Shown: piece after piece, positions 10,774 through 20,969 of the stretch
Position numbering within the stretch: the first letter of the stretch is position 1
How the letters are laid out: each line of letters starts with the position of its first letter
The notes under the pieces: generated by a model
Told to the model about the DNA's origin: nothing
The model's input: the letters and a program-made list of their open reading frames with translations, nothing else
The model's database searches: none
Program-made: the position numbers and the translations under genes
IMG/VR virus record: IMGVR_UViG_3300043177_000122
Location: 128,001-192,000 of that record
Reading direction: 5' to 3' (one strand)
DNA length: 64,000 nucleotides
DNA from: a virus
Taxonomy: Duplodnaviria; Caudoviricetes

Positions 10774-11436
10774 ATGCCATATTGTATTCGATGTTATCGT
10801 GATAAATTGTCTTCAGAAATGAAGTCTGCCAAAATATGTCTTTTGTGTGCGGCCAAACGACGAAAATATTATGATAGAAATTCTACTAATCTTAGAAGAA
10901 AATCAAAGAGATATTATAAGAAGACACGAGCTGATAGACTATCTTGGCAAAAGAATTACTATCAAACGAATATAGAAAGTAGAAAGAAGTATAATAAAAA
11001 GTACTATCAAAAACATAAAGAAGATATAATAAAGCACATAATACTGAAAGCAAAACAACGTCGTAAAAATGATCCTGTTTTTAGATTGAGAAAAAGAGTG
11101 TCTGCTGATGTTTGGAGAATGATAAAAACAAATGGTGGAACTAAAAATGGTTCTGTTATTAGGTTTTTGCCCTTTTCAATAAAAGAACTTAAAGAACATC
11201 TTGAAAAACAATTTGAACCATGGATGAATTGGAGTAATTGGGGTGTTTACAGAAAAGATATTTGGGATGACAATGATTCTACCACTTGGACTTGGCAAAT
11301 TGATCATATAATACCACATTGTAATTTTCAATATTCCTCGATGAAAGAGCAGTCTTTTCTAGATTGTTGGTCATTAACTAATTTGCGACCAATCAGCTCT
11401 AAAGAAAATCTAGAAAAGAATAGGCGAATTAAATGA
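10774..11436 (+). CDS. HNH-type homing endonuclease
   Basis: Basic Tyr/Lys-rich N-terminus; HLEKQF..WM.W.N.G, WQIDHIIP, NLRP...EN..K. Confidence 0.8.
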   Translation: MPYCIRCYRDKLSSEMKSAKICLLCAAKRRKYYDRNSTNLRRKSKRYYKKTRADRLSWQKNYYQTNIESRKKYNKKYYQKHKEDIIKHIILKAKQRRKNDPVFRLRKRVSADVWRMIKTNGGTKNGSVIRFLPFSIKELKEHLEKQFEPWMNWSNWGVYRKDIWDDNDSTTWTWQIDHIIPHCNFQYSSMKEQSFLDCWSLTNLRPISSKENLEKNRRIK

Positions 11437-12224
11437 GCACCTCTAAACTAAAAGACCGTATTGAACGATATCAATCGGTTACCGACCAAAGATTACTCGA
11501 CCGAGTACCAATTATTATTTGTGTCAATGGGCGAGGTTTTTCTAAAGTAACTCAATTGCTCGACAAGCCTTATTGTCCTAAATTCGCTGAGTGCATTCTT
11601 TCCACAACTTTGCGCCTGTGTAATGATGTAGAAGGTGCTTTATTTGCTTATCAATTCAATGATGAGATTGTTGTAGTAACTCGTAATGATCAAAATATTG
11701 ATACAAATCCATGGTATGATAATAAGCTACAAAAAATCTGTTCAGTAACCTCCGCTATTGCTACCATGCATTTTAATGATTGTGCAACTACTGTGGATCT
11801 TAATATGACTGGAGACCCTATTTTTACTTCCCAAGTTTTTACGGCGCCAAATATAGGAGAAGCTATCAATACTATTATTTACAAACAGCAACAAAATTTT
11901 CACACATCTATTCAGTCTGCTTGTTTGTATGAGCTTATTAGGAAGTACGATAAGAATACCATTAAAGAAATGATGGCCGGGCTGAGCATTGATGAGAAAG
12001 TAGATTTGTTAGCACAGGAGGCAGATATTAACTTCAATGATTATCCTACCTCTTTTCGTCGAGGGGTGGCAGCCTATAGAGTTCCAATTGTATCTGGTGA
12101 ATCCATGAGGAACAAATGGTATCTCAATACGGAGCCGCCAATCTTTACCAAAGATCAATCATTCCTGACTAATATCTTTAAGAATGGCGCCGATATCTTC
12201 AGACAGGAGAGTTTTTCAAAATAA
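11433..12224 (+). CDS. tRNA(His) guanylyltransferase Thg1-like protein
   Basis: vNGRGFSK, AYQFNDEI, K..S..S.IAT..F, FRRG motifs; first catalytic Asp appears as Asn. Confidence 0.8.
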   Translation: MSTSKLKDRIERYQSVTDQRLLDRVPIIICVNGRGFSKVTQLLDKPYCPKFAECILSTTLRLCNDVEGALFAYQFNDEIVVVTRNDQNIDTNPWYDNKLQKICSVTSAIATMHFNDCATTVDLNMTGDPIFTSQVFTAPNIGEAINTIIYKQQQNFHTSIQSACLYELIRKYDKNTIKEMMAGLSIDEKVDLLAQEADINFNDYPTSFRRGVAAYRVPIVSGESMRNKWYLNTEPPIFTKDQSFLTNIFKNGADIFRQESFSK

Positions 12225-12253
12225 TTCGGTTAATTTTTTAGGATTACCGGACG

Positions 12254-12281
12254 TTGACATCTAGGCATAAGTGGTTATATT
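12254..12281 (+). promoter_or_regulatory. sigma70-like promoter for tRNA cluster
   Basis: TTGACA (12254-59), 16 nt, TATATT (12276-81), 14 nt before first tRNA. Confidence 0.6.
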
Positions 12282-12294
12282 AGATGTACGATAA

Positions 12295-12368
12295 GCTGGC
12301 TTAGTATAATGGTATTATTCCGCTCTTGTAATGCGGAGAACCGAGTTCGATTCTCGGCGCCAGCTCCA
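12295..12368 (+). tRNA. tRNA-Thr(UGU)
   Basis: Cloverleaf; loop CTTGTAA; T arm CCGAG-TTCGATT-CTCGG; U73, encoded CCA; mismatches at 7:66 and 31:39. Confidence 0.85.
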
Positions 12369-12384
12369 AATATTAGAGTAATAA

Positions 12385-12459
12385 GCCCACGTAGTATAAC
12401 GGTTATTACCCGTCTTTGGTAAAGACGAAAATTGAGTTCGACTCTCAACTTGGGCTCCA
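12385..12459 (+). tRNA. tRNA-Thr(GGU)
   Basis: CGTCT-TTGGTAA-AGACG anticodon arm; TTGAG-TTCGACT-CTCAA; U73, CCA. Confidence 0.9.
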
Positions 12460-12462
12460 TAA

Positions 12463-12537
12463 GCTGTAGTAGTACAATGGTACTGCACTTCCTTGGTACG
12501 GAAGAGACTACAGGTTCGATTCCCGTCTACAGCTCCA
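12463..12537 (+). tRNA. tRNA-Thr(GGU), second copy with a different body
   Basis: GCTGTAG/CTACAGC acceptor; CTTCC-TTGGTAC-GGAAG; U73, CCA. Confidence 0.9.
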
Positions 12538-12539
12538 AG

Positions 12540-12644
12540 CTTTTATCTAATGCTAGTAAGACTAGCACCGGCAGAACCCCCGGTAACAGACCTGACAGTG
12601 GCAGTCGAATTAACGATAGATGGTTGAAGGATGTTTGATAAAAG
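12540..12644 (+). ncRNA. candidate structured RNA in tRNA spacer
   Basis: Closing helix CTTTTATC/GATAAAAG enclosing hairpins TGCTAGT-aag-ACTAGCA, CCGG-N8-CCGG and GAC..GTC. Confidence 0.45.
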
Positions 12645-12650
12645 TCACCT

Positions 12651-12724
12651 GCTGATATCGTATAGTGGAATTACGCTGCCCTCGTAACGCAGACACATGA
12701 GTTCGATTCTCATTATCAGCTCCA
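12651..12724 (+). tRNA. tRNA-Thr(CGU)
   Basis: GCTGATA/TATCAGC acceptor; loop CTCGTAA; ATGAG-TTCGATT-CTCAT; U73, CCA. Confidence 0.88.
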
Positions 12725-12748
12725 TAGCTACGCAAGGAGCTATTTTTG
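12724..12748 (+). terminator. hairpin plus U-tract after tRNA cluster
   Basis: ATAGCT-acGCAAgg-AGCTAT followed by TTTT. Confidence 0.5.
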
Positions 12749-12762
12749 TTTAAGAGGCTATT

Positions 12763-12993
12763 ATGATTCCTTTTGAAAGAGTAGCGGAATGTATTCGCAA
12801 ATTGCAAGCTATAGTGGATGTTGAATCTAATTCTCTTAAAAAGCGTACATATAAAGATCTTTTAGAAGGACTGAAGTTAGCATATGACTCTATTGTTAAA
12901 GACAATATTCCATGTCCGCCAGAAATGGAGGAATCAGTAGGTAAATCACTTAAAGTTATTGAAGATCTATATGCTAGAATTGCGTGCAATTAA
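12763..12993 (+). CDS. hypothetical protein
   Basis: 76 aa ORF with GAGG RBS. Confidence 0.6.
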   Translation: MIPFERVAECIRKLQAIVDVESNSLKKRTYKDLLEGLKLAYDSIVKDNIPCPPEMEESVGKSLKVIEDLYARIACN

Positions 12994-13004
12994 CAAGTAG
13001 AATC

Positions 13005-13226
13005 ATGAATAAATTATTTGATGCACTGTTGATAATTGACCATTTTGGGTGGAAAAACGATTTGGATCCAAAATTCAAACCATTTTTCGACAAGGTATAT
13101 GATTATGCCGCAAATCTTTCAGATAGCGATCTTACTAAAGAAGATTTAGCTGTTGTTTCTTTGATAGATCGTATTTTAGAAGAGAAATTTCAAGCGCGTG
13201 ATGCAAAGGATTTTAACAATAACTAA
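13005..13226 (+). CDS. hypothetical protein
   Basis: ORF; ATG 13005 preferred over track start 12984. Confidence 0.55.
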   Translation: MNKLFDALLIIDHFGWKNDLDPKFKPFFDKVYDYAANLSDSDLTKEDLAVVSLIDRILEEKFQARDAKDFNNN

Positions 13227-13227
13227 T

Positions 13228-13578
13228 GGGGATGACATAGATTCGACGTGGTTTCGAATTATCGAAATGATGCAAACAGAGGATGATTGCCCCTCCAAAA
13301 GTAATCAACGTATAAATGCAAACGATAATGCATTTGCAATGGCCGCCTGAGGGCACCATTCGTTCCTAGATAAGACTGCTTGAGTAATCAATGGAACGCC
13401 AACCCACAAAGCTGGTTGATGAATATGGCTACGATGTTCAACAACAAGATTAACAGTAGATAGCTAGCCGGAGCGAATTCTTGCAGCGTTGTTGATAACG
13501 CCAATATCAACTAAGTTTGTGAATGAGTTTTGATAAGGGCATATCGCGGACTCGGCTGCAATGCCGACATCTCCACCA
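13228..13578 (+). ncRNA. ssrA: tmRNA (SsrA), tag peptide ANDNAFAMAA*
   Basis: 5' GGGGATG...ATTCGAC, 3' CATCTCC-ACCA with G3:U70; tag frame GCA AAC GAT AAT GCA TTT GCA ATG GCC GCC TGA at 13318-13350. Confidence 0.93.
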
Positions 13579-13621
13579 TTTTAAACTGCACATCTCCACA
13601 TGCGCCGATATATAGTTGTGT

Positions 13622-14171
13622 ATGGAAAAGAAAATCATACTAAACTGCGCTCATTGTGGAGAATCATTTGAAAAAGAGGCTCGTGAGCATCGCCGACAAT
13701 TAAAAGAAGGAAAAGATGTTTTCTACTGCTCTCTTTCTTGCGTATGTAAAGAGCGAAATAAAAACAACCCTCCTAAAGGTAATGTAAAAAAATCTTCAAG
13801 CAGATAACCGAAGAGATGAGTACACTCAGTTTAGATGGTTTGTTAATCGTGGTAATTACAGAGGTAAGAGGAAGAGAAAATACGGATGCGATCTAACTGT
13901 AGAGTTTCTTAAAGAATTGTGGGATCAGCAAAAGGGCGTTTGCCCATTTACTGGATGGCAATTGATTCTACCACAAGATTCTTCTTATGCTTGGGATGAA
14001 AAGAACCCAGCTAATGCTTCTCTGGACAGAATAGATAATTCTAAGGGCTATATGCAGGGCAATGTTAGATTCATTTCAGTTATGGCCAATTTAGCAAGAC
14101 AAACATTTACAGACGAACAGGTTAGAAACTTTTGCAAAGCCGTGGTAACAAATGAAATGGCCACTTCGTGA
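13622..14171 (+). pseudogene. HNH/endonuclease-VII-like homing endonuclease split by one extra A
   Basis: CAHC and FYCSLSC N-terminus, CPFTG and ASLDRIDNSKGY..GNV C-terminus; frames join if A7 at 13786-13792 is A6. Confidence 0.75.
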
Positions 14172-14634
14172 TAAAACGCCCGCAATTCCTGAAGAAAGAG
14201 CTGTGGGCGATTTTGCTTTTAGGCGCTCCTTCTATTATCATCCCGGAGTAGACGTTTATTGCGGATTTGGGCAAGAAATACAGGCGATTGAAGAAGGTGA
14301 AGTTGTTCACATGGAAAACTTTACTGGGCCTAATGCTAATCCTCCTAGTCCATGGTGGCTAGAAACCTGGAGTATTCTTATTGAAGGAGCTTCAGGCGTT
14401 TTAGGATATTGTGAAATTAAACCATTTCCACATATTAAAATTGGAGTCAAGGTTAAAGCGGGCGAACTAATCGCTACTGTTATTCCTGTTCTTAAAAAAG
14501 ATAAAGGTAATGGTACGACCATGCTTCACTTTGAACACTACGAAACTGGAACTAGACACCATGTAACGTGGGAATTAGACACCATCAAACCCGAAGAATT
14601 AAAAAACTCTCGTTATTTGCTAGAAAAAAAATAA
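14152..14634 (+). CDS. M23-family peptidase-like protein
   Basis: HPGVD motif, V..GE.IA, LHFE; HxH first His absent. Confidence 0.65.
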   Translation: MKWPLRDKTPAIPEERAVGDFAFRRSFYYHPGVDVYCGFGQEIQAIEEGEVVHMENFTGPNANPPSPWWLETWSILIEGASGVLGYCEIKPFPHIKIGVKVKAGELIATVIPVLKKDKGNGTTMLHFEHYETGTRHHVTWELDTIKPEELKNSRYLLEKK

Positions 14635-14648
14635 TCAACCAATAATTG

Positions 14649-14656
14649 GATATATA
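14649..14656 (+). promoter_or_regulatory. GATATAT motif 8 nt upstream of ATG 14664
   Basis: GATATATA-catcgtt-ATG, the same geometry as at 10759, 13607, 16523, 18838, 19319 and 8680(-). Confidence 0.6.
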
Positions 14657-14663
14657 CATCGTT

Positions 14664-15260
14664 ATGAGCTATCTATAGAACCATCTAATTAAGCAAATGA
14701 AAGAGTGTCCACAAACGGATACTCAATCTGTGTATGAACACGGTGTCTCTGTAAAAGAGCACATTTTTGAATTGATTTCATTTTTAAAAACAGGACAAGT
14801 GCCTGAAGGTTGGAGATTACCTGACTGGATGCATATGTATCGAGAGCAGATTCTAGCCTCGCTTCTTCTAGAGGATATCATCAAAGCCTACGCAGTCTTC
14901 CATGATTGTGGTAAACCTTATTGTCTAATAATAGATGATAAGGGCAGAAGACATTTTCCTGACCATCCAGAGATATCACACAACGTTTGGCTTGCTGTTA
15001 GCAATAACAAAACGATTGCTAAGTTAATTCTTATGGATATGAAAATTCATACTATGAAGGCAGCAGATGTTGAAGAATTCTGTCAGCATCAAGAAGCTAT
15101 CACTCTCCTCATTGCAGGATTAGCTGAAGTACATAGTAATGCAAAGATGTTTGGCGGCATTGATTCTGAATCCTTCAAAATCAAATGGAGTCAAATTAAC
15201 AAACGTGGCAAAGCAATTTGTCGTAAACTATTTGGAGAACATCATGTGTCTATAGGTTAA
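14664..15260 (+). CDS. HD-domain phosphohydrolase with in-frame TAG at codon 5
   Basis: ATG AGC TAT CTA TAG AAC CAT CTA ATT AAG CAA ATG... is in frame with track ORF 14697; EHG, FHDCGKP and later H residues typical of HD fold. Confidence 0.7.
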
Positions 15261-15594
15261 AGAAGGCGATAAGCTTTATGTTATTACTCGTGCAGATTTG
15301 GAACCGGGTTATCAAGCAGTGCAGAGTATGCATGCATTGAGACAATTTACGGCAGAGCATCCTGAGGTCGATAAGGCATGGTTTGAGCAATCAAACTATC
15401 TTGGACTTCTTTCGGTGCAGAATGAACAAGAACTCCTGCAGTTGTTAGAACAAGCAAACAACCAAGGGATTCAAGCTTCAGCTTTCCGAGAACCCGATAT
15501 TGATAATCAAATGACAGCCATTGCGTTATCACCTGGCCCTAAGTCTAAAAAGCTTTGTAGCCGTTTACCACTAGCATTAAGAGGTAAGCCATGA
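15244..15594 (+). CDS. Pth2-like (peptidyl-tRNA hydrolase II fold) protein with in-frame TAG at codon 4
   Basis: GGAG RBS then ATG TGT CTA TAG GTT AAA GAA GGC GAT AAG CTT TAT...; KLYVITRADL.PGYQAVQSMHA and FREPDIDNQMTAIA motifs. Confidence 0.75.
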
Positions 15595-15842
15595 GCAAAT
15601 GGATTGATAAAGAGCGTGGGCCCGAATGTTTCTGTGGCATGCCAACTGGAGTATATATTAGTGAAGATGGTAAGGCATGGTTAATGTGTATCTTTCATGA
15701 ATATGAAGCGGGAGCAATGTTCCCGCTCCCTAGAGATGGAAGACCTGATGCCTGGCCTGATATTCCTCGTGAAGAGATAAATGAGCTAATGAAACGAGGA
15801 GCAGAAGAAGATGAACAAGAACCTATTTCAGAAGATGGATAA
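15591..15842 (+). CDS. hypothetical protein (CxC...CxxH)
   Basis: 83 aa ORF, GAGG RBS, overlaps preceding stop. Confidence 0.6.
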   Translation: MSKWIDKERGPECFCGMPTGVYISEDGKAWLMCIFHEYEAGAMFPLPRDGRPDAWPDIPREEINELMKRGAEEDEQEPISEDG

Positions 15843-15996
15843 AAAAGAATACGATTACTGCTCATGTTCGGGCCATTGCTGTGACAAACCAGAGCGATTT
15901 TGCCCTGTTCACGTTTGCGAAGCAGAAAATTTCTGTGAAGAATGCTTTGTTTCAGAATGTGCTAATTGCCACAAATCATGTGCGTGTGACCTATGA
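15811..15996 (+). CDS. small Cys-rich protein
   Basis: 12 Cys in the last ~45 residues. Confidence 0.55.
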   Translation: MNKNLFQKMDKKEYDYCSCSGHCCDKPERFCPVHVCEAENFCEECFVSECANCHKSCACDL

Positions 15997-16346
15997 AAAA
16001 GACTAGTATAGCATCTTTGCAAGAACGTTTAACTGATTGGTTGCCATGGGATGAAGCTATGTATCAGGTTGGAGCTACTCTTGGTTTCTGGCCTGAGTTT
16101 GGCGCACCTCATGATAACGATCCGTGGCATGGCGTTAAAGACGTTATGCACACTAGAAAACATGAACCGCTAGGTGCTATACTGGAATGGTTTCTCAAAG
16201 ATTTGGTTGAAGTGGGTTGTCTTGAATCAAAAACAGTCGAACTTGAATTCGAATTTTCAAGTGGGAAAAAGACCACGATTCCAATCGCGCATTATCGTTG
16301 GAATGTAAAATATAAAGGACCGGCAGATTTAATATCAATGTTATAA
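15993..16346 (+). CDS. hypothetical protein
   Basis: 117 aa ORF, ATGA overlap. Confidence 0.6.
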   Translation: MKKTSIASLQERLTDWLPWDEAMYQVGATLGFWPEFGAPHDNDPWHGVKDVMHTRKHEPLGAILEWFLKDLVEVGCLESKTVELEFEFSSGKKTTIPIAHYRWNVKYKGPADLISML

Positions 16347-16352
16347 TGTAAT

Positions 16353-16426
16353 CCGCTCTTGGTATAGTGGCTGTGCCGTCGACTCTAAATCGACAGAGCC
16401 GTGTTCAAATCACGGAGAGCGGGCCA
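16353..16426 (+). tRNA. amber suppressor tRNA (CUA), copy 1
   Basis: CCGCTCT/AGAGCGG acceptor, G73, CCA; GTCGA-CTCTAAA-TCGAC (anticodon CTA 16385-87); CCGTG-TTCAAAT-CACGG. Confidence 0.88.
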
Positions 16427-16436
16427 AATAATATAT

Positions 16437-16508
16437 GCGCCGTTAGCTCAGTGGTAGAGCGGGAGCCTCTAAAACTCACGGTCGAGGGTTCAAATCCCTC
16501 ACGGCGCA
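16437..16508 (+). tRNA. amber suppressor tRNA (CUA), copy 2
   Basis: GCGCCGT/ACGGCGC acceptor, A73, CCA not encoded; GCTC-AGTGGTA-GAGC; loop CTCTAAA (CTA 16469-71) on a 3-bp stem; GAGGG-TTCAAAT-CCCTC. Confidence 0.8.
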
Positions 16509-16537
16509 CAAACTACTATTATGATATATAATCTAGC

Positions 16538-16720
16538 ATGAACAAATTTATGACTAGATTAGAAATGCAAACACGTGTTAGAACAATTCGAGAAGAATTG
16601 GAAAATAGGAATAAAACTGGTATGGCCAAAATGGCAACCGACGATGGTGCCCCTATATCTACTGAAGACTTGCAAAATGAAATGTTTTCATTGATTTACA
16701 GATTGAGTAAATTTGAATAA
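16538..16720 (+). CDS. hypothetical protein
   Basis: 60 aa ORF preceded by GATATAT-N8. Confidence 0.6.
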   Translation: MNKFMTRLEMQTRVRTIREELENRNKTGMAKMATDDGAPISTEDLQNEMFSLIYRLSKFE

Positions 16721-16727
16721 GTAGGCT

Positions 16728-17240
16728 TCAAATTAGTGATTTCTTTCGCAATCGTTTACGAAGTGCTGGATCACTACATCCGAGTTTTTTTGAAACTGCA
16801 AATATGCTATTTTCAGCAATCATTTTTATGAGTGATTGATCATCTGGCCAATTAAATCTATCTTGGGTTGTTCGACAATGATTGCATAGCCCAGATACCG
16901 ACACTCTACTTCTATAATTTCCACATTTTTTGCAAGTATAATTTCCCGTTCGTTTTCTATTTATCGCATTACCACCAGCATAGTTTTCCGTTTGAGAGTG
17001 ACAGTTAGGGCAAAGAAATCTTAAATTCTCTATTCTATGATCTTTGTTATCTCCATTAATGTGATCAACTTGTAATGTAAGAATGTTTCCATTCCACTCT
17101 GGCCCTAATCCACAGATTGCGCATTTATATGGCAACAGATTGTACTTCAAGATTTTAGTTTTAAGATGTGATCTAGTAAAAGTAGAATTTTTTACTAATG
17201 CTTCCTCAATTGGGATTTCGTGGTCGCCTTTTTTATACAT
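16728..17240 (-). CDS. HNH homing endonuclease with C-terminal Zn ribbon and HTH
   Basis: CAICG, LQVDHINGD..DHRIENLRFLCPNCHSQT. Confidence 0.88.
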   Translation of the reverse strand: MYKKGDHEIPIEEALVKNSTFTRSHLKTKILKYNLLPYKCAICGLGPEWNGNILTLQVDHINGDNKDHRIENLRFLCPNCHSQTENYAGGNAINRKRTGNYTCKKCGNYRSRVSVSGLCNHCRTTQDRFNWPDDQSLIKMIAENSIFAVSKKLGCSDPALRKRLRKKSLI

Positions 17241-17288
17241 GTAACCTCACTTAATCTAACCTTTGTATGCATGTCAATGCATAGTTTT

Positions 17289-17780
17289 ATGAAAGAACTT
17301 CGTTTGGAAATAGAACTTGTACCACAAACCTCATGGATGAATAATGTCCGTTCTATATTAACTGCTGCACAATGGGATATTCTAAGAAAGCAAGTATCTG
17401 CTGCTGCTTGGGATACTTGCCAAATTTGTGGTGGAGTAGGCCCAGAACACCCAGTTGAGTGTCATGAGATTTGGGAATATAACGATAAGACCAAGATTCA
17501 AAAATTAGCCGGAATGATTGCATTATGCCCCAATTGTCATTTGGTCAAACATTTTGGTTTTGCTAGAGTTACAGATAGAGAGGAAATTGCTTTCAATCAT
17601 TTTATGAAAGTCAATAGTCTTAAAAAAATTCAAGCAGAAGCCGAGATTGTTAAAGCATTTGATATTTGGAGAAAACGTAGTGTGATTGATTGGGAACTTG
17701 ATCTATCTGGACTAGAGCGGTACGGAATAGATATTTCTAAAATTCGGAAGCCGCTAATGAAACCTTCGGAGACTGAGTAA
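17289..17780 (+). CDS. HNH-like protein
   Basis: CQICG...VECHEIWEY...LCPNCHLVKH; ATG 17289 preferred. Confidence 0.7.
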   Translation: MKELRLEIELVPQTSWMNNVRSILTAAQWDILRKQVSAAAWDTCQICGGVGPEHPVECHEIWEYNDKTKIQKLAGMIALCPNCHLVKHFGFARVTDREEIAFNHFMKVNSLKKIQAEAEIVKAFDIWRKRSVIDWELDLSGLERYGIDISKIRKPLMKPSETE

Positions 17781-17832
17781 GAATAACACTTGATAAGATA
17801 CTATGATATACTACATTACTAGTGGTGGTAAA

Positions 17833-18222
17833 ATGCCTTCTAATACAGACGAATCTAAAAGATATTGGCTTTTAGAGGATCCTCGTAAAACCGGACTTAA
17901 GAATGGGTTACGACAATTAACAATTGAACAGTTACAAAGAGTTATCGATTATCAAGGTGAAATGGTTCTGGACAGCTATAATTATGAGGGTGGAAAATTT
18001 TGTCCTTTAACGATAGCGGTTGAACTAGATAAAACAATAATTAACCCAACACATGAAAAAGTTTTCGATGCCTTGACAAGTATGGGTTATAAAGTTTACA
18101 ATACTCGTGGGATTCCAGGCGAGTTTTACACAAATAATAGGCTGGAAGATTTGCTGGAAGCAGCAAAAGAAGTGTTACAGGAGAAAACAAATCAGAATGC
18201 AAACTGTAAATCAATCAAATAA
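17833..18222 (+). CDS. hypothetical protein
   Basis: ORF with GGTGG upstream of ATG 17833. Confidence 0.6.
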   Translation: MPSNTDESKRYWLLEDPRKTGLKNGLRQLTIEQLQRVIDYQGEMVLDSYNYEGGKFCPLTIAVELDKTIINPTHEKVFDALTSMGYKVYNTRGIPGEFYTNNRLEDLLEAAKEVLQEKTNQNANCKSIK

Positions 18223-18748
18223 TCAGCAGCGTGAATACCGTACTCGTATCAATAAATTCATTCGTGTTCCTCAAATTCGTGTAGTGCTTGCCGATGGTTC
18301 CAATGCCGGCATTATGAATACTTATGAGGCTTTGAAAATGGCACAAGACCAAGGACTTGATTTGGTGGAGATTAGTCCTAAGGCACAACCACCAGTCTGT
18401 AAAATTATGGACTATGGTAAATTTAAGTACGAAGAGAAGAAAAAGCTTCAAGCTGCTAAAAAGAATCAACAGATTCAAGAACTTAAGGAGCTAACTTTTC
18501 GACCCAACACTGATGAGAATGACCTAAAACATAAGCTTTCTCAAGCTAAAGAGTTCTTAGCTGATGGTGACAGGGTTAAATTTGCAGTACGTTTCCGTGG
18601 TCGTGAAATTGTCCATCAGGATATTGGTAAAGAGAAGTTAACTTGGATTCTTCAGGAATTGAATGGTTTAGTATCTCCTAATCCGCAAATTTCTTTAGAA
18701 GGAAAAATTATGTGGATGATTGTTTCTCCTACTAAACAAAAGTCATAA
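18197..18748 (+). CDS. infC: translation initiation factor IF-3
   Basis: RIN..IRVPQIRVV, DLVEISPKAQPPVCKIMDYGKFKYE, FL.DGDRVK..VRFRGRE. Confidence 0.95.
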   Translation: MQTVNQSNNQQREYRTRINKFIRVPQIRVVLADGSNAGIMNTYEALKMAQDQGLDLVEISPKAQPPVCKIMDYGKFKYEEKKKLQAAKKNQQIQELKELTFRPNTDENDLKHKLSQAKEFLADGDRVKFAVRFRGREIVHQDIGKEKLTWILQELNGLVSPNPQISLEGKIMWMIVSPTKQKS

Positions 18749-18758
18749 TAGTAGGAAT

Positions 18759-18835
18759 GTCCCCGTAGTCTAAAGGATAGGCACCAGTTTCCTAAACTGG
18801 CATTAATGTTGGTTCGAGTCCAATCGGGGATACCA
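18759..18835 (+). tRNA. tRNA-Arg(CCU)
   Basis: CCAGT-TTCCTAA-ACTGG anticodon arm; GTTGG-TTCGAGT-CCAAT; CCA. Confidence 0.88.
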
Positions 18836-19333: not shown

Positions 19334-20071
19334 ATGAAGAACGGAATTATATTGGCCGGCGGCACCGGCTCCCGTTTGATGCCTTTAACCCAAGTTGTTA
19401 ATAAACATTTGCTAGGTGTCAACGGAAAATTTATTATTGACTATCCAATGGATACCCTTAAGAAAATGGGTTGCCAGGACGTTACTGTAATTTTGGGTGG
19501 TAATCATTATGCCCAAGTAGCAGGCTATCTCGGTGATGGTAGTCGCTATGGCTTGAATTTAAACTATGTCTATCAGGCTGAGCCAAAGGGAATTGCCCAC
19601 GCGATTAATTTGTGCAAAAGATTTGTCTATGATGATTCAGATTTCTCAGTAATTCTCGGTGATAATATTTTCGAAAATGTTCCACGATGGAATAATCCAG
19701 ATTGGAAGACGAATCCTCGTGCTCAAATTTTATTAGCACACCATCAAGATCTGAAACGCTTTGGTGTTTGCTCTGTTGATACAGATGGCAAAATTGCAAA
19801 GATTGAAGAGAAACCAAAAGAGATAGACCCTAATTATAAAAATTTAGCAATGTCGGGTTGCTATCTTTTCACTTCACGATTCTTTGAATATTTTGAGCAG
19901 CTCAAGCCTAGCGCTAGAGGCGAGTACGAGATTACTGATATTGTTCGCCATTATTTAAAAGATGACAATTTATCTTACTCGGTTCTTGACGGCCTATGGA
20001 GTGATGCTGGGACTCATGAATCTATTGCTTTTGTAAACAACTACTTCTATACTAAATCTCAAAATCATTGA
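19334..20071 (+). CDS. rmlA: glucose-1-phosphate thymidylyltransferase (RmlA/RfbA-like)
   Basis: GIILAGGTGSRL.PLT...NKHLL, Q.EP.GIAHA, LGDN, EKP, SARGEYEITD, WSDAGT. Confidence 0.92.
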   Translation: MKNGIILAGGTGSRLMPLTQVVNKHLLGVNGKFIIDYPMDTLKKMGCQDVTVILGGNHYAQVAGYLGDGSRYGLNLNYVYQAEPKGIAHAINLCKRFVYDDSDFSVILGDNIFENVPRWNNPDWKTNPRAQILLAHHQDLKRFGVCSVDTDGKIAKIEEKPKEIDPNYKNLAMSGCYLFTSRFFEYFEQLKPSARGEYEITDIVRHYLKDDNLSYSVLDGLWSDAGTHESIAFVNNYFYTKSQNH

Positions 20072-20111
20072 TATAGTAGCTTCGTATTAGTAATTAACGA
20101 TTCGAGGCATT

Positions 20112-20969
20112 ATGAAAGTATTGACATTAGGCAACGGGTTCGTAGCCGATCATTTACCGTATGATAGAGTTCTAAAAGGAACTGAACGTGTTGAGCCATA
20201 CCGAGAAAATTTAGCATACCTTCTTGGGCGTGATAAACCAGATGTGATTATAAATTGTCTTGGCAAGACTGGCCGACCCAACGTAGACTGGTGCGAGTCA
20301 CATAAAACAGAAACTTATATGGCCAATGTAACAATGCCACTTATGATTGCAGAATGGTGTGAAAGTAACAATGTTCATTTGATTAACATTGGCTCTGGCT
20401 GTATCTATTTTGGCCCATCTCCTTACAAAGGTCATACTGGGGGGGCTAAAGATCCTGGTTGGCGAGAGGATGATTTTGCTAAACCAGAATCTTTTTATTC
20501 TAAAACTAAATATGCTTGTGACATGATGATTGGTTCTCTACCACATGTTACTACATTACGTATCAGAATGCCGGTATCAGATAAATTTGTACCGCGTAAT
20601 TTGATTAGTAAGCTTAGGGGATACAAACAAGTAATTGATATCCCAAATTCCATGACGATTATGAGCGACCTAGTTCGTTGTATTGACTGGGCAGCCACTA
20701 ATCAACCTAGTGGTATTTGGCATGTTGCTAACCCACAGCCAATGACGGCAGCCCGCATTATGCAAGAATACCAGAAATACTTTCCAAAACATCAGTTTGA
20801 AATTATCACTGAAGGACAACTGGATCAGTTGACAATTGCTAAGCGCTCAAACTGTATCCTTAACACGGATAAACTTAGGGCAGCTGGATTCAAGATGAGT
20901 GATTCTGAAGAGGCTCTTGCTAGTTGCATGGCTGAGTACGTTCAAGATATGCGGAGAAACAATGTCTAA
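20112..20969 (+). CDS. NDP-4-keto-6-deoxyglucose 3,5-epimerase/4-reductase (NRS/ER, UER1-type)
   Basis: G.TGRPNVDWCESHKTET, SFYSKTK, TLRIRMP, RNLISKL..Y..VIDIPNSMT. Confidence 0.85.
   Translation: MKVLTLGNGFVADHLPYDRVLKGTERVEPYRENLAYLLGRDKPDVIINCLGKTGRPNVDWCESHKTETYMANVTMPLMIAEWCESNNVHLINIGSGCIYFGPSPYKGHTGGAKDPGWREDDFAKPESFYSKTKYACDMMIGSLPHVTTLRIRMPVSDKFVPRNLISKLRGYKQVIDIPNSMTIMSDLVRCIDWAATNQPSGIWHVANPQPMTAARIMQEYQKYFPKHQFEIITEGQLDQLTIAKRSNCILNTDKLRAAGFKMSDSEEALASCMAEYVQDMRRNNV

Follow-up and report, generated by a model that had tools for sequence, protein, structure and literature searches.

Does a group of tRNA- and ribosome-related genes lying side by side in a huge phage act as one machine, and why do two of them carry a stop codon within their first codons? 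These questions are raised by a block of genes at positions 11433-18835 of the 64,000-nucleotide stretch analysed here (the window), which covers bases 128001-192000 of the 358,993-base (359 kb) Caudoviricetes phage record IMGVR_UViG_3300043177_000122. The record, whose completeness is estimated at 83%, has a G+C content of 38% and contains 57 tRNA genes; in its coordinates the block lies at 139.4-146.8 kb. A preliminary description of this DNA had listed a Thg1-like protein, four tRNA-Thr, a transfer-messenger RNA (tmRNA), an HD hydrolase, a PTH2-like protein, two tRNAs with a CUA anticodon (tRNA(CUA)), the initiation factor IF-3 and a tRNA-Arg(CCU), and had proposed that they form a counter-defence module, two members of which are switched on by amber suppression. 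Every one of these features was recovered by open reading frame (ORF) calls, family profiles, ARAGORN and Rfam. By sequence comparison, the new and well-supported part of the locus is the unit formed by the amber-led HD and PTH2-like genes. As an explanation of the whole locus we favour, with moderate confidence, an amber-gated HD/PTH2-like unit set within a mosaic block of translation genes.

Gene families were searched in Pfam, PHROG, NCBIfam/TIGR and Rfam, and tRNA genes with ARAGORN and Rfam. For the comparison of gene order, searches with the HD protein and with Thg1 supplied 16 viral contigs each. When the whole stretch was compared at the DNA level with 50,697 phage records, only HNH genes matched.

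In-frame amber codons in two adjacent genes

The HD phosphohydrolase gene (14664-15260, plus strand; phrog_14850, E 6e-59) opens with ATG AGC TAT CTA TAG AAC and encodes 198 amino acids if the TAG at 14676-14678 (codon 5) is read, or 187 from the ATG at 14697. The next gene (15244-15594, plus strand; PF01981), which encodes a predicted divergent PTH2-fold hydrolase, shares its first 17 nucleotides with the end of the HD gene and opens with ATG TGT CTA TAG GTT; with its TAG at 15253-15255 (codon 4) read, the product has 116 amino acids. The two leaders are MSYL-UAG and MCL-UAG.

Both codons recur in relatives. An in-frame TAG follows the ATG and one to nine further codons of the HD gene in 15 of 18 distinct loci, with identities of 38-89% (the HD loci concerned are the window, L001-L012, L014, L015, L022, and the cultured phages XacN1 and RsoM2USA). 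The leaders in these two cultured phages read MK-TAG-TIKAMK and MKS-TAG-ISKEEL, respectively. In Serratia phage BF (L032, NC_041917.1, 286.4-289.7 kb), an internal in-frame TAG precedes the HD motif and the gene is annotated as two, gp515 and gp514; the same split annotation is found in Erwinia, Yersinia, Cronobacter and Pectobacterium relatives. The PTH2-like gene carries the TAG in 14 of its 15 distinct loci. Where relatives have a sense codon at this position, it is the glutamine codon CAG in both genes: HD relatives of 198 amino acids have it, as in MSYLQN, and PTH2-like relatives, those of 116 amino acids among them, have it in starts such as MCLQVKEGDKLY, MSLQIKEGD or MTQIKEGD. The two ambers of the preliminary description are therefore real, conserved in position across many phages, and matched by glutamine-codon counterparts.

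Gene callers turn such genes into truncated or split ORFs, as in the case of BF gp515/gp514, and the ambers might accordingly be taken for decay or sequencing errors in dispensable genes. We find this scarcely credible: the TAG sits at the same codon in independent assemblies and in finished cultured genomes, and purifying selection on both proteins is otherwise clear, the HD protein having relatives in 481 clusters and catalytic residues being invariant.

A second possibility is that the short ORFs are leader peptides that act without suppression, the ribosome terminating at UAG and restarting at Met12 of the HD protein or at a non-AUG codon of the PTH2-like gene. The HD gene does have an in-frame ATG six codons past the TAG, and very short ORFs cause peptidyl-tRNA drop-off, which would suit control of a Pth-like gene. 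Several observations speak against it. The interrupting stop was never TAA or TGA in about 30 copies of the HD and PTH2-like genes, and relatives have CAG where others have TAG. The HD residues that follow the TAG (N-x-L-I-x-D-M) are kept through synonymous changes, also in two loci without a TAG; this stretch up to Met12 is conserved as protein and modelled as a helix at a predicted local confidence (pLDDT) of about 95. In the PTH2-like gene, the first strand (KLYVITRADL) lies ahead of every canonical start codon that follows the TAG, so that no canonical start retains it. Restart control is thus very unlikely, and the comparison shows that the codons downstream of UAG belong to the protein in both genes.

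A conserved sequence element also stands in front of the HD gene. The HD gene and a few others (genome 192336 and 280538) have GGATATAT 16-17 nucleotides before their ATG, at 14646-14666 in the case of HD. The motif is kept upstream of HD in relatives and is not enriched genome-wide, with 14 copies against 13 expected.

The HD hydrolase and its PTH2-like partner

What the two proteins might do was approached through their families and folds. The HD hydrolase belongs to a family of about 481 clusters of relatives, many of them 260-340 amino acids long, and residues H26, H80, D81, H101, D125 and H129 are invariant in 65 homologues. The Pfam HD profile (PF01966) did not match the window protein, and its homologues P0129, P0143 and P0147, at 17.7-19.6 bits, stay under the cut-off of 22. 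The AlphaFold2 model (pLDDT 96), in which residues 3-14 form a confident helix, matches solely folds of the HD superfamily. The closest is 3WFO, over residues 249-448 (Z 13.4, root-mean-square deviation (rmsd) 3.3 Å, 162 residues), followed by a structure at Z 10.4. The small alarmone hydrolase 7QOE (Z 7.3) and SpoT 7QPR (Z 7.9) are both far below the score of 3WFO; we take small alarmone hydrolases to be members of the same superfamily.

The 3WFO entry is identified as the class-II CC-adding enzyme of Aquifex (PMC4810234; bioRxiv 10.1101/2021.08.20.456953). As in class-II CCA/CC-adding enzymes (3WFO-3WFS), the metal-binding H, HD and D residues are kept, and the best fold match is to the C-terminal half that holds the tRNA (PMC4810234). 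Unlike these enzymes, the phage protein stands alone or fused to PTH2, has no nucleotidyltransferase head, and shares 17% identity. In the E. coli class-II CCA-adding enzyme, the HD domain clears tRNA ends of 2',3'-cyclic phosphate (PMC6961547). Of the module first proposed, the assignment of the HD protein to the tRNA 3' end gains support here, its fold being nearest the tRNA-binding half of a class-II nucleotidyltransferase.

The PTH2-like protein scores 31.9 bits with PF01981 (gathering cut-off 23). We take the catalytic residues of Pth2 to be the Lys of the GK motif and the Asp of DAGxT. In this family the first motif reads GY, GA or GQ and the second EPDxx (GY and EPDID in the window protein); across 33 members no Lys is conserved, and the invariant residues are instead W46, N51, E83, D85 and T91. 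The phage encodes in addition a canonical Pth2 at genome 70318-70812, about 73 kb upstream (PF01981, 70.6 bits; GK...Q..HA and DAGLTE), which makes the gene in the block a divergent paralogue. Resemblance to archaeal and eukaryotic Pth2 (2ZV3, 1WN2, 1XTY, human Bit1 1Q7S) lies in a PF01981 score above cut-off and in a fold shared through a fusion homologue (see below); the motifs and the set of invariant residues are its own. The earlier assignment to Pth2 accordingly stands for family and fold and fails for the catalytic Lys and DAG motif, which the canonical copy 73 kb away retains.

Several observations tie the two proteins together. A single PHROG family, phrog_14850, aligns with both, the HD protein at positions 90-268 and the PTH2-like protein at 6-73. 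Six of the ten HD relatives tested have an N-terminal PF01981 domain and are PTH2-HD fusions (P0126, P0129, P0131, P0143, P0150, P0201), XacN1 ORF364 is a fusion in the opposite order (HD-PTH2), and in L016 the two genes are neighbours in swapped order. In the model of fusion P0129 (pLDDT 95), the N-terminal domain matches 2ZV3 and human Bit1 1Q7S with a template modelling (TM) score of 0.72-0.73 and an rmsd of 2.3-2.7 Å, and the C-terminal domain matches the same region of 3WFO as the stand-alone HD protein. Because natural fusions occur in both orders in other phages, we regard HD and PTH2-like proteins, by sequence, as functional partners and as the one real unit in the block. From the likeness of HD to the C-terminal half of the CC-adding enzyme and from its fusions with PTH2-fold domains, the likeliest substrate of the modelled pair is the tRNA 3' end.

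The partners are also found apart. By profile comparison, no PTH2-like gene lies beside HD in Serratia phage BF or RsoM2USA. In L024, L026 and L030/L031, a Cys-rich ORF of about 200 amino acids (CxxC...CxxC) stands where HD would precede the amber-led PTH2-like gene.

Suppressor tRNAs and the proposed gating of two genes

The two tRNA(CUA) genes, predicted amber suppressors, lie at 16353-16509 on the plus strand (ARAGORN, Rfam). Their bodies are unrelated to each other, and the nearest tRNAs in the genome are 68-72% identical to them. The first has an encoded CCA, and the second (16437-16509) ends in GCGCAC without one. In relatives, the pattern YTCTAAR proved too short to find suppressor tRNAs and a longer pattern from the anticodon to the T-loop was used instead. 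One or two tRNA(CUA) genes occupy the equivalent place in relatives, within 3.5 kb in most loci, and in Serratia BF a tRNA-Sup(CUA) lies 2.7 kb downstream of the HD gene. They are elsewhere in the records of XacN1, RsoM2USA (12 kb from HD) and the L015 contig. In XacN1 (L033/L039, AP018399.1), whose HD region is at 243.7 kb, a tandem tRNA(CUA) pair lies at 36 kb, in the terminal repeat and 1 kb from the tmRNA.

Does the presence of these tRNAs mean that UAG is a sense codon throughout the genome? TAG terminates 8 of the 222 long plus-strand ORFs. Coverage by such ORFs amounts to 234 kb under code 11, and rises to 250 kb with TAG read as sense, 262 kb with TGA and 270 kb with TAA; the gain with TAG is no larger than that with either other stop, and we rejected a genome-wide reassignment (code 15). 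Short leaders, with an ATG 1-10 codons before a stop that precedes a long frame, are no commoner for TAG (13%) than for TAA (12%) or TGA (11%) across the genome. Five candidates for a TAG in mid-gene came up, near 16, 49.7, 261.6 and 341.6-341.8 kb; two of the five were examined and were spurious or doubtful. Those near 341.6-341.8 kb, a pair, run antisense to a gene for a repeat protein, and the candidate near 16 kb resembles two neighbouring genes. With such leaders no commoner for TAG and no credible mid-gene TAG among the candidates examined, the amber leaders of the HD and PTH2-like genes appear to be specific to these genes.

Phages of the crAss-like and Lak groups that use code 15 (PMC9523058, PMC10879173, PMC11210395) offer the nearest comparison. 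There as here, a tRNA(CUA) is encoded, UAG would be read as sense (most likely as Gln) and is avoided as a stop, and suppression has been thought to time gene expression. In contrast to these phages, only two adjacent small genes carry UAG in the present genome, within their first few codons, and the rest fits the standard code. From its distribution, UAG is read here as a gene-specific gate and not as a change of code.

Jumbo phage XacN1 is closer still, with two tandem tRNA(CUA) in a standard-code genome plus an HD-PTH2 protein, the fusion ORF364. Its authors examined read-through of 18 terminal amber stops, which gave no target for the suppressor tRNAs (Yoshikawa et al., 2018, PMC5852040). 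ORF364 has an in-frame MK-UAG leader just upstream of its annotated start, outside the reach of a search for read-through at terminal stops, and its sequence makes it a candidate target of these tRNAs.

We propose the following mechanism. The tRNA(CUA), encoded 0.8 kb downstream, would decode the UAG as an amino acid, of which Gln is the most likely in view of the CAG counterparts in relatives. Since it would read the UAG in both leaders, production of the HD and PTH2-like enzymes would require active suppression and scale with it. The pair may then act on the tRNA 3' end, as its fold and fusions suggest. The PTH2-like part would hydrolyse the ester of an acyl or peptidyl group, and the HD part would take off a phosphate, cyclic phosphate or pyrophosphate. 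More broadly, and at somewhat less than even confidence, we suggest a gene-specific amber switch that operates across lineages of standard-code jumbo phages, in which the tRNA(CUA) mainly licenses, or is checked by, the HD and PTH2-like enzyme. On the same reading, which we offer just as tentatively, the two genes would supply the target so far missing for the orphan suppressor tRNAs in XacN1, RsoM2USA and the Serratia BF/Pectobacterium CBB group. Stop-codon read-through, tRNA end chemistry and tmRNA rescue could then be joined in a feedback circuit.

This gating model meets a number of difficulties. To gate a repair enzyme on a working tRNA would be the opposite of what a need for damage-induced repair calls for. 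Comparison of the two tRNA(CUA) with the other tRNAs of the phage did not reveal which amino acid they carry. Within 10 kb of the TAG-bearing genes of L011/L012 and L030, which are fragmentary or partly sampled contigs, no tRNA(CUA) was found, and in XacN1 the tRNA(CUA) are more than 200 kb from the HD-PTH2 gene. L024, L026 and L030 have the PTH2-like gene without an adjoining HD gene. The match of HD to 3WFO concerns an all-helical fold, among which middling Z-scores are common, and the PTH2-like protein, lacking the canonical Lys of Pth2, may have a substrate other than peptidyl-tRNA.

A further reading would make the system a homeostat of suppression, in which the HD/PTH2-like enzyme acts on the tRNA(CUA), for instance to deacylate or disable it, or on read-through products, its own ambers provide a negative feedback that caps suppression, and tmRNA clears the ribosomes that read-through sends off the end of host messages. 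It would accommodate the tight linkage of the tRNA(CUA) genes to the only two genes with a credible in-frame UAG, the avoidance of TAG as a stop codon by the phage, and the position of the XacN1 tRNA(CUA) pair 1 kb from the tmRNA; the existence of a separate canonical Pth2 would also leave the PTH2-like paralogue free for a special substrate. Yet it is pure inference, the sequences disclose no specificity of the enzymes for tRNA(CUA), and enzymes and tRNAs are far apart in several phages. We consider this reading unlikely, and retain the amber-gated HD/PTH2-like unit.

The surrounding translation block

There remains the question of whether the whole 7.4 kb is a single island. Linkage of the genes in relatives, which the preliminary description had named as a check, holds for close, collinear contigs, which keep the order Thg1, tRNA-Thr, tmRNA, M23, HD, PTH2-like, tRNA(CUA), HNH, ORF, IF-3, tRNA-Arg(CCU) at Thg1 identities of 52-90%. 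The flanking genes for an NTP-transferase and an RmlD-like reductase are as syntenic as the members of the block. Because the relatives are collinear and these sugar-nucleotide genes are kept equally, synteny here is no proof of functional coupling. In the most distant contigs (L013, L015, L016; HD identity 38-51%), only HD with the PTH2-like gene and/or tRNAs nearby remains. Linkage breaks down in cultured jumbo phages with both genes: a distance of about 180-200 kb separates Thg1 from HD in Serratia BF, the Erwinia pEa_SNUABM phages, Yersinia fHe-Yen9, XacN1 and Xoo-sp13, an unlinking that had been named beforehand as refuting the module.

The first gene of the block (11433-12224, plus strand) encodes a Thg1-like protein of the TLP type with 263 amino acids. 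Its membership of the family is clear (PF04446, E 4e-17, 62.7 bits against a cut-off of 29.2; phrog_4717, E 3e-42), and among solved structures the best match is to the Bacillus thuringiensis TLP 4KGK (E 2e-26). We take the metal-binding and catalytic carboxylates of Thg1 to be the first Asp of the (R)xDG motif and the DE of SDE. An Asn replaces this first Asp (VNGRGF, against riDGahF in BtTLP), and the DE motif survives as NDE. The window protein and all ten relatives of the clade (L001-L014 range) share the Asn without exception, and the Asp is retained in Thg1 of phages BF, G and XacN1 and in BtTLP. What had been described as a Thg1-like protein thus keeps its family and loses the catalytic consensus, and by its sequence the protein of this clade may be a pseudo-enzyme or have a changed chemistry. 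A role in adding G-1 to the phage tRNA-His was rejected as unneeded, because G-1 is encoded in the gene opposite C73, as in bacterial genes.

Downstream of Thg1 lie four tRNA-Thr genes (UGU, GGU, GGU, CGU; 12295-12724, plus strand; ARAGORN, Rfam). A promoter-like sequence, TTGACA-16-TATATT, directly precedes this array at 12254-12281, and a second such site at 18073-18102 is upstream of IF-3; both are consensus matches only. A scan of promoter and terminator sites gave 36 against 28.5 ± 5.1 in shuffles, without enrichment. The position of the two sites suggests that the tRNA-Thr array and IF-3 are probably in separate transcription units and that the block has several promoters. Two small ORFs of 76 and 80 amino acids (12763-13226, plus strand) follow, with tblastn matches in L001, L005 and L006; Pfam, PHROG and NCBIfam searches gave nothing for either.

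The tmRNA gene (13228-13578, plus strand) was missed by ARAGORN and recovered by Rfam, with 104 bits against a gathering score of 47 for RF00023. It covers model positions 1-374, the full length, has a CCA end, encodes the tag ANDNAFAMAA followed by a stop, and is found at the equivalent place in relatives. SmpB (PF01668) had no match in the 359-kb record, estimated to be 83% complete, so that host SmpB would be required.

Two short ORFs resembling HNH endonucleases (13616-13807 and 13917-14171, plus strand; phrog_3322, E 6e-19, and weak HNH PHROG matches) adjoin the tmRNA, and the same pair occurs in L004, L006, L014, L023 and L026; their sequences suggest that they may be a single split or degenerate homing endonuclease. 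They are followed by an M23-family peptidase gene (14152-14634, plus strand; PF01551, E 4e-7, 30.7 bits), which is syntenic in relatives and has no link to tRNA. Between the PTH2-like gene and the tRNA(CUA) pair are three small ORFs of 83, 61 and 117 amino acids (15591-16346, plus strand), kept in close relatives; none has a Pfam or PHROG family, and a Protein Atlas search with the ORF at 15993-16346 gave nothing usable. A 60-amino-acid ORF of unknown function (16538-16720, plus strand), kept in relatives, precedes an HNH homing endonuclease on the minus strand (16728-17240; PF01844, phrog_10822, E 6e-38), which has DNA-level matches to HNH genes of unrelated phages. A second HNH endonuclease (17220-17780, plus strand; phrog_5200, E 6e-50) follows, then an ORF of 139 amino acids and unknown function (17803-18222, plus strand), syntenic with IF-3, without a family match and with an Atlas model of low confidence. 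The earlier listing had left out all of these, namely four or five HNH endonuclease ORFs (one on the minus strand), the M23 peptidase and eight small function-unknown ORFs.

IF-3 (18197-18748, plus strand) has both domains (PF05198, E 2e-32; PF00707, E 4e-26) and reaches 209 bits with TIGR00168 against a cut-off of 60 (equivalog level); its ATG start at 18197 is read from the sequence. A tRNA-Arg(CCU) gene (18759-18835, plus strand; ARAGORN, Rfam) closes the block. Beyond it, at 19334-20969, a nucleotidyl-transferase (PF00483, E 1e-47) and the RmlD-like reductase are sugar-nucleotide genes without a link to translation.

Other enzymes of tRNA metabolism are found outside the block. The genome has an Rnl1-type RNA ligase at 119.6 kb, an RNA_ligase-family gene at 37.5 kb, and two CCA-adding-type genes at 202 and 232 kb; searches of it turned up neither RtcB nor a release-factor gene. 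T4-type tRNA repair (Pnk + Rnl) within the block was rejected, as there are no healing or sealing enzymes inside 139.4-146.8 kb.

Could the 7.4 kb nevertheless be one counter-defence island, in which Thg1 serves tRNA 5' ends, HD 3' ends, PTH2 acyl blocks and tmRNA stalled ribosomes, all jointly selected against host toxins that attack tRNA? All the parts are present, about a dozen related huge phages have them in the same order, and Thg1, PTH2 and IF-3 of jumbo phages have already been interpreted as RNA repair or ribosome rescue in tRNA conflicts (PMC7824862). PMC11245113 describes phage tRNAs that escape tRNA-targeting defences, the toxSAS FaRel2, which prefers tRNA-Thr and tRNA-Gly, and a phage-encoded small alarmone hydrolase that undoes the modification by stripping the 3' pyrophosphate put on tRNA. 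By analogy, these precedents would be leads for a counter-defence role and not evidence on this locus. Bixzunavirus mycobacteriophages (cluster C) likewise group a PTH2-like gene (40% identity) in a tRNA array with HNH genes, three tRNA-Thr, tRNA-Arg(CCU) and tmRNA, within 6 kb; unlike the present block, no HD partner, tRNA(CUA), Thg1 or IF-3 is annotated there. Mycobacterium phage HyRo (L035, 91-97 kb) shows this type of array, an unrelated lineage that partly mirrors the window.

Against a single island stand the equivalence of its synteny with whole-genome collinearity, the separation of Thg1 and HD in the BF, XacN1, Xoo-sp13, Erwinia and Yersinia phages, the Asn at the catalytic position of the Thg1-like protein, and the location of the canonical Pth2, two RNA ligases and two CCA-adding-type genes outside the block. 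Inside it, HNH genes, an M23 peptidase and eight unknown ORFs are interspersed, and several promoters are probable. We therefore judge joint selection of the members against tRNA-attacking toxins, and with it the island as a whole, to be improbable; an integrated module that covers 5' end, 3' end, acyl block and stalling does not survive the unlinking of Thg1 and HD, the changed catalytic residues and the related enzymes elsewhere. As judged from gene content and order, the block is a clade-conserved mosaic of huge-phage translation accessory genes among homing endonuclease genes, and not one machine.

This broad neighbourhood is an ordinary huge-phage translation set of a kind already known. 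Published accounts of huge phages describe Thg1, PTH2, IF-3, tmRNA, CCA-adding enzymes and large sets of tRNAs, and take them to support phage translation, to repair tRNA and to rescue ribosomes (Iyer et al., 2021, PMC7824862; Al-Shayeb et al., 2020, PMC7162821). Compared with these published sets, the Thg1-like and PTH2-like proteins of the window depart from the catalytic consensus. In PMC7824862 and PMC7162821 we found neither an HD protein partnered with PTH2 nor a fusion of the two mentioned, nor in-frame ambers in these genes. The locus also carries two cautions: a neighbourhood cannot be inferred to be a functional island when the relatives compared are collinear, and activity cannot be inferred from a family name when catalytic residues have changed.

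If the gating of HD and PTH2-like genes by tRNA(CUA) is true, it would give a concrete job to the suppressor tRNAs of standard-code jumbo phages, which have so far been without a target, and would represent a minimal natural case of translational gating by a private tRNA. XacN1, RsoM2USA, Serratia BF and Pectobacterium CBB are in culture and would allow the idea to be tested. The gating would also draw attention to a widespread, uncharacterised enzyme made of an HD domain and a PTH2 fold, whose relatives fall into about 480 clusters and whose substrate is probably the tRNA 3' end.

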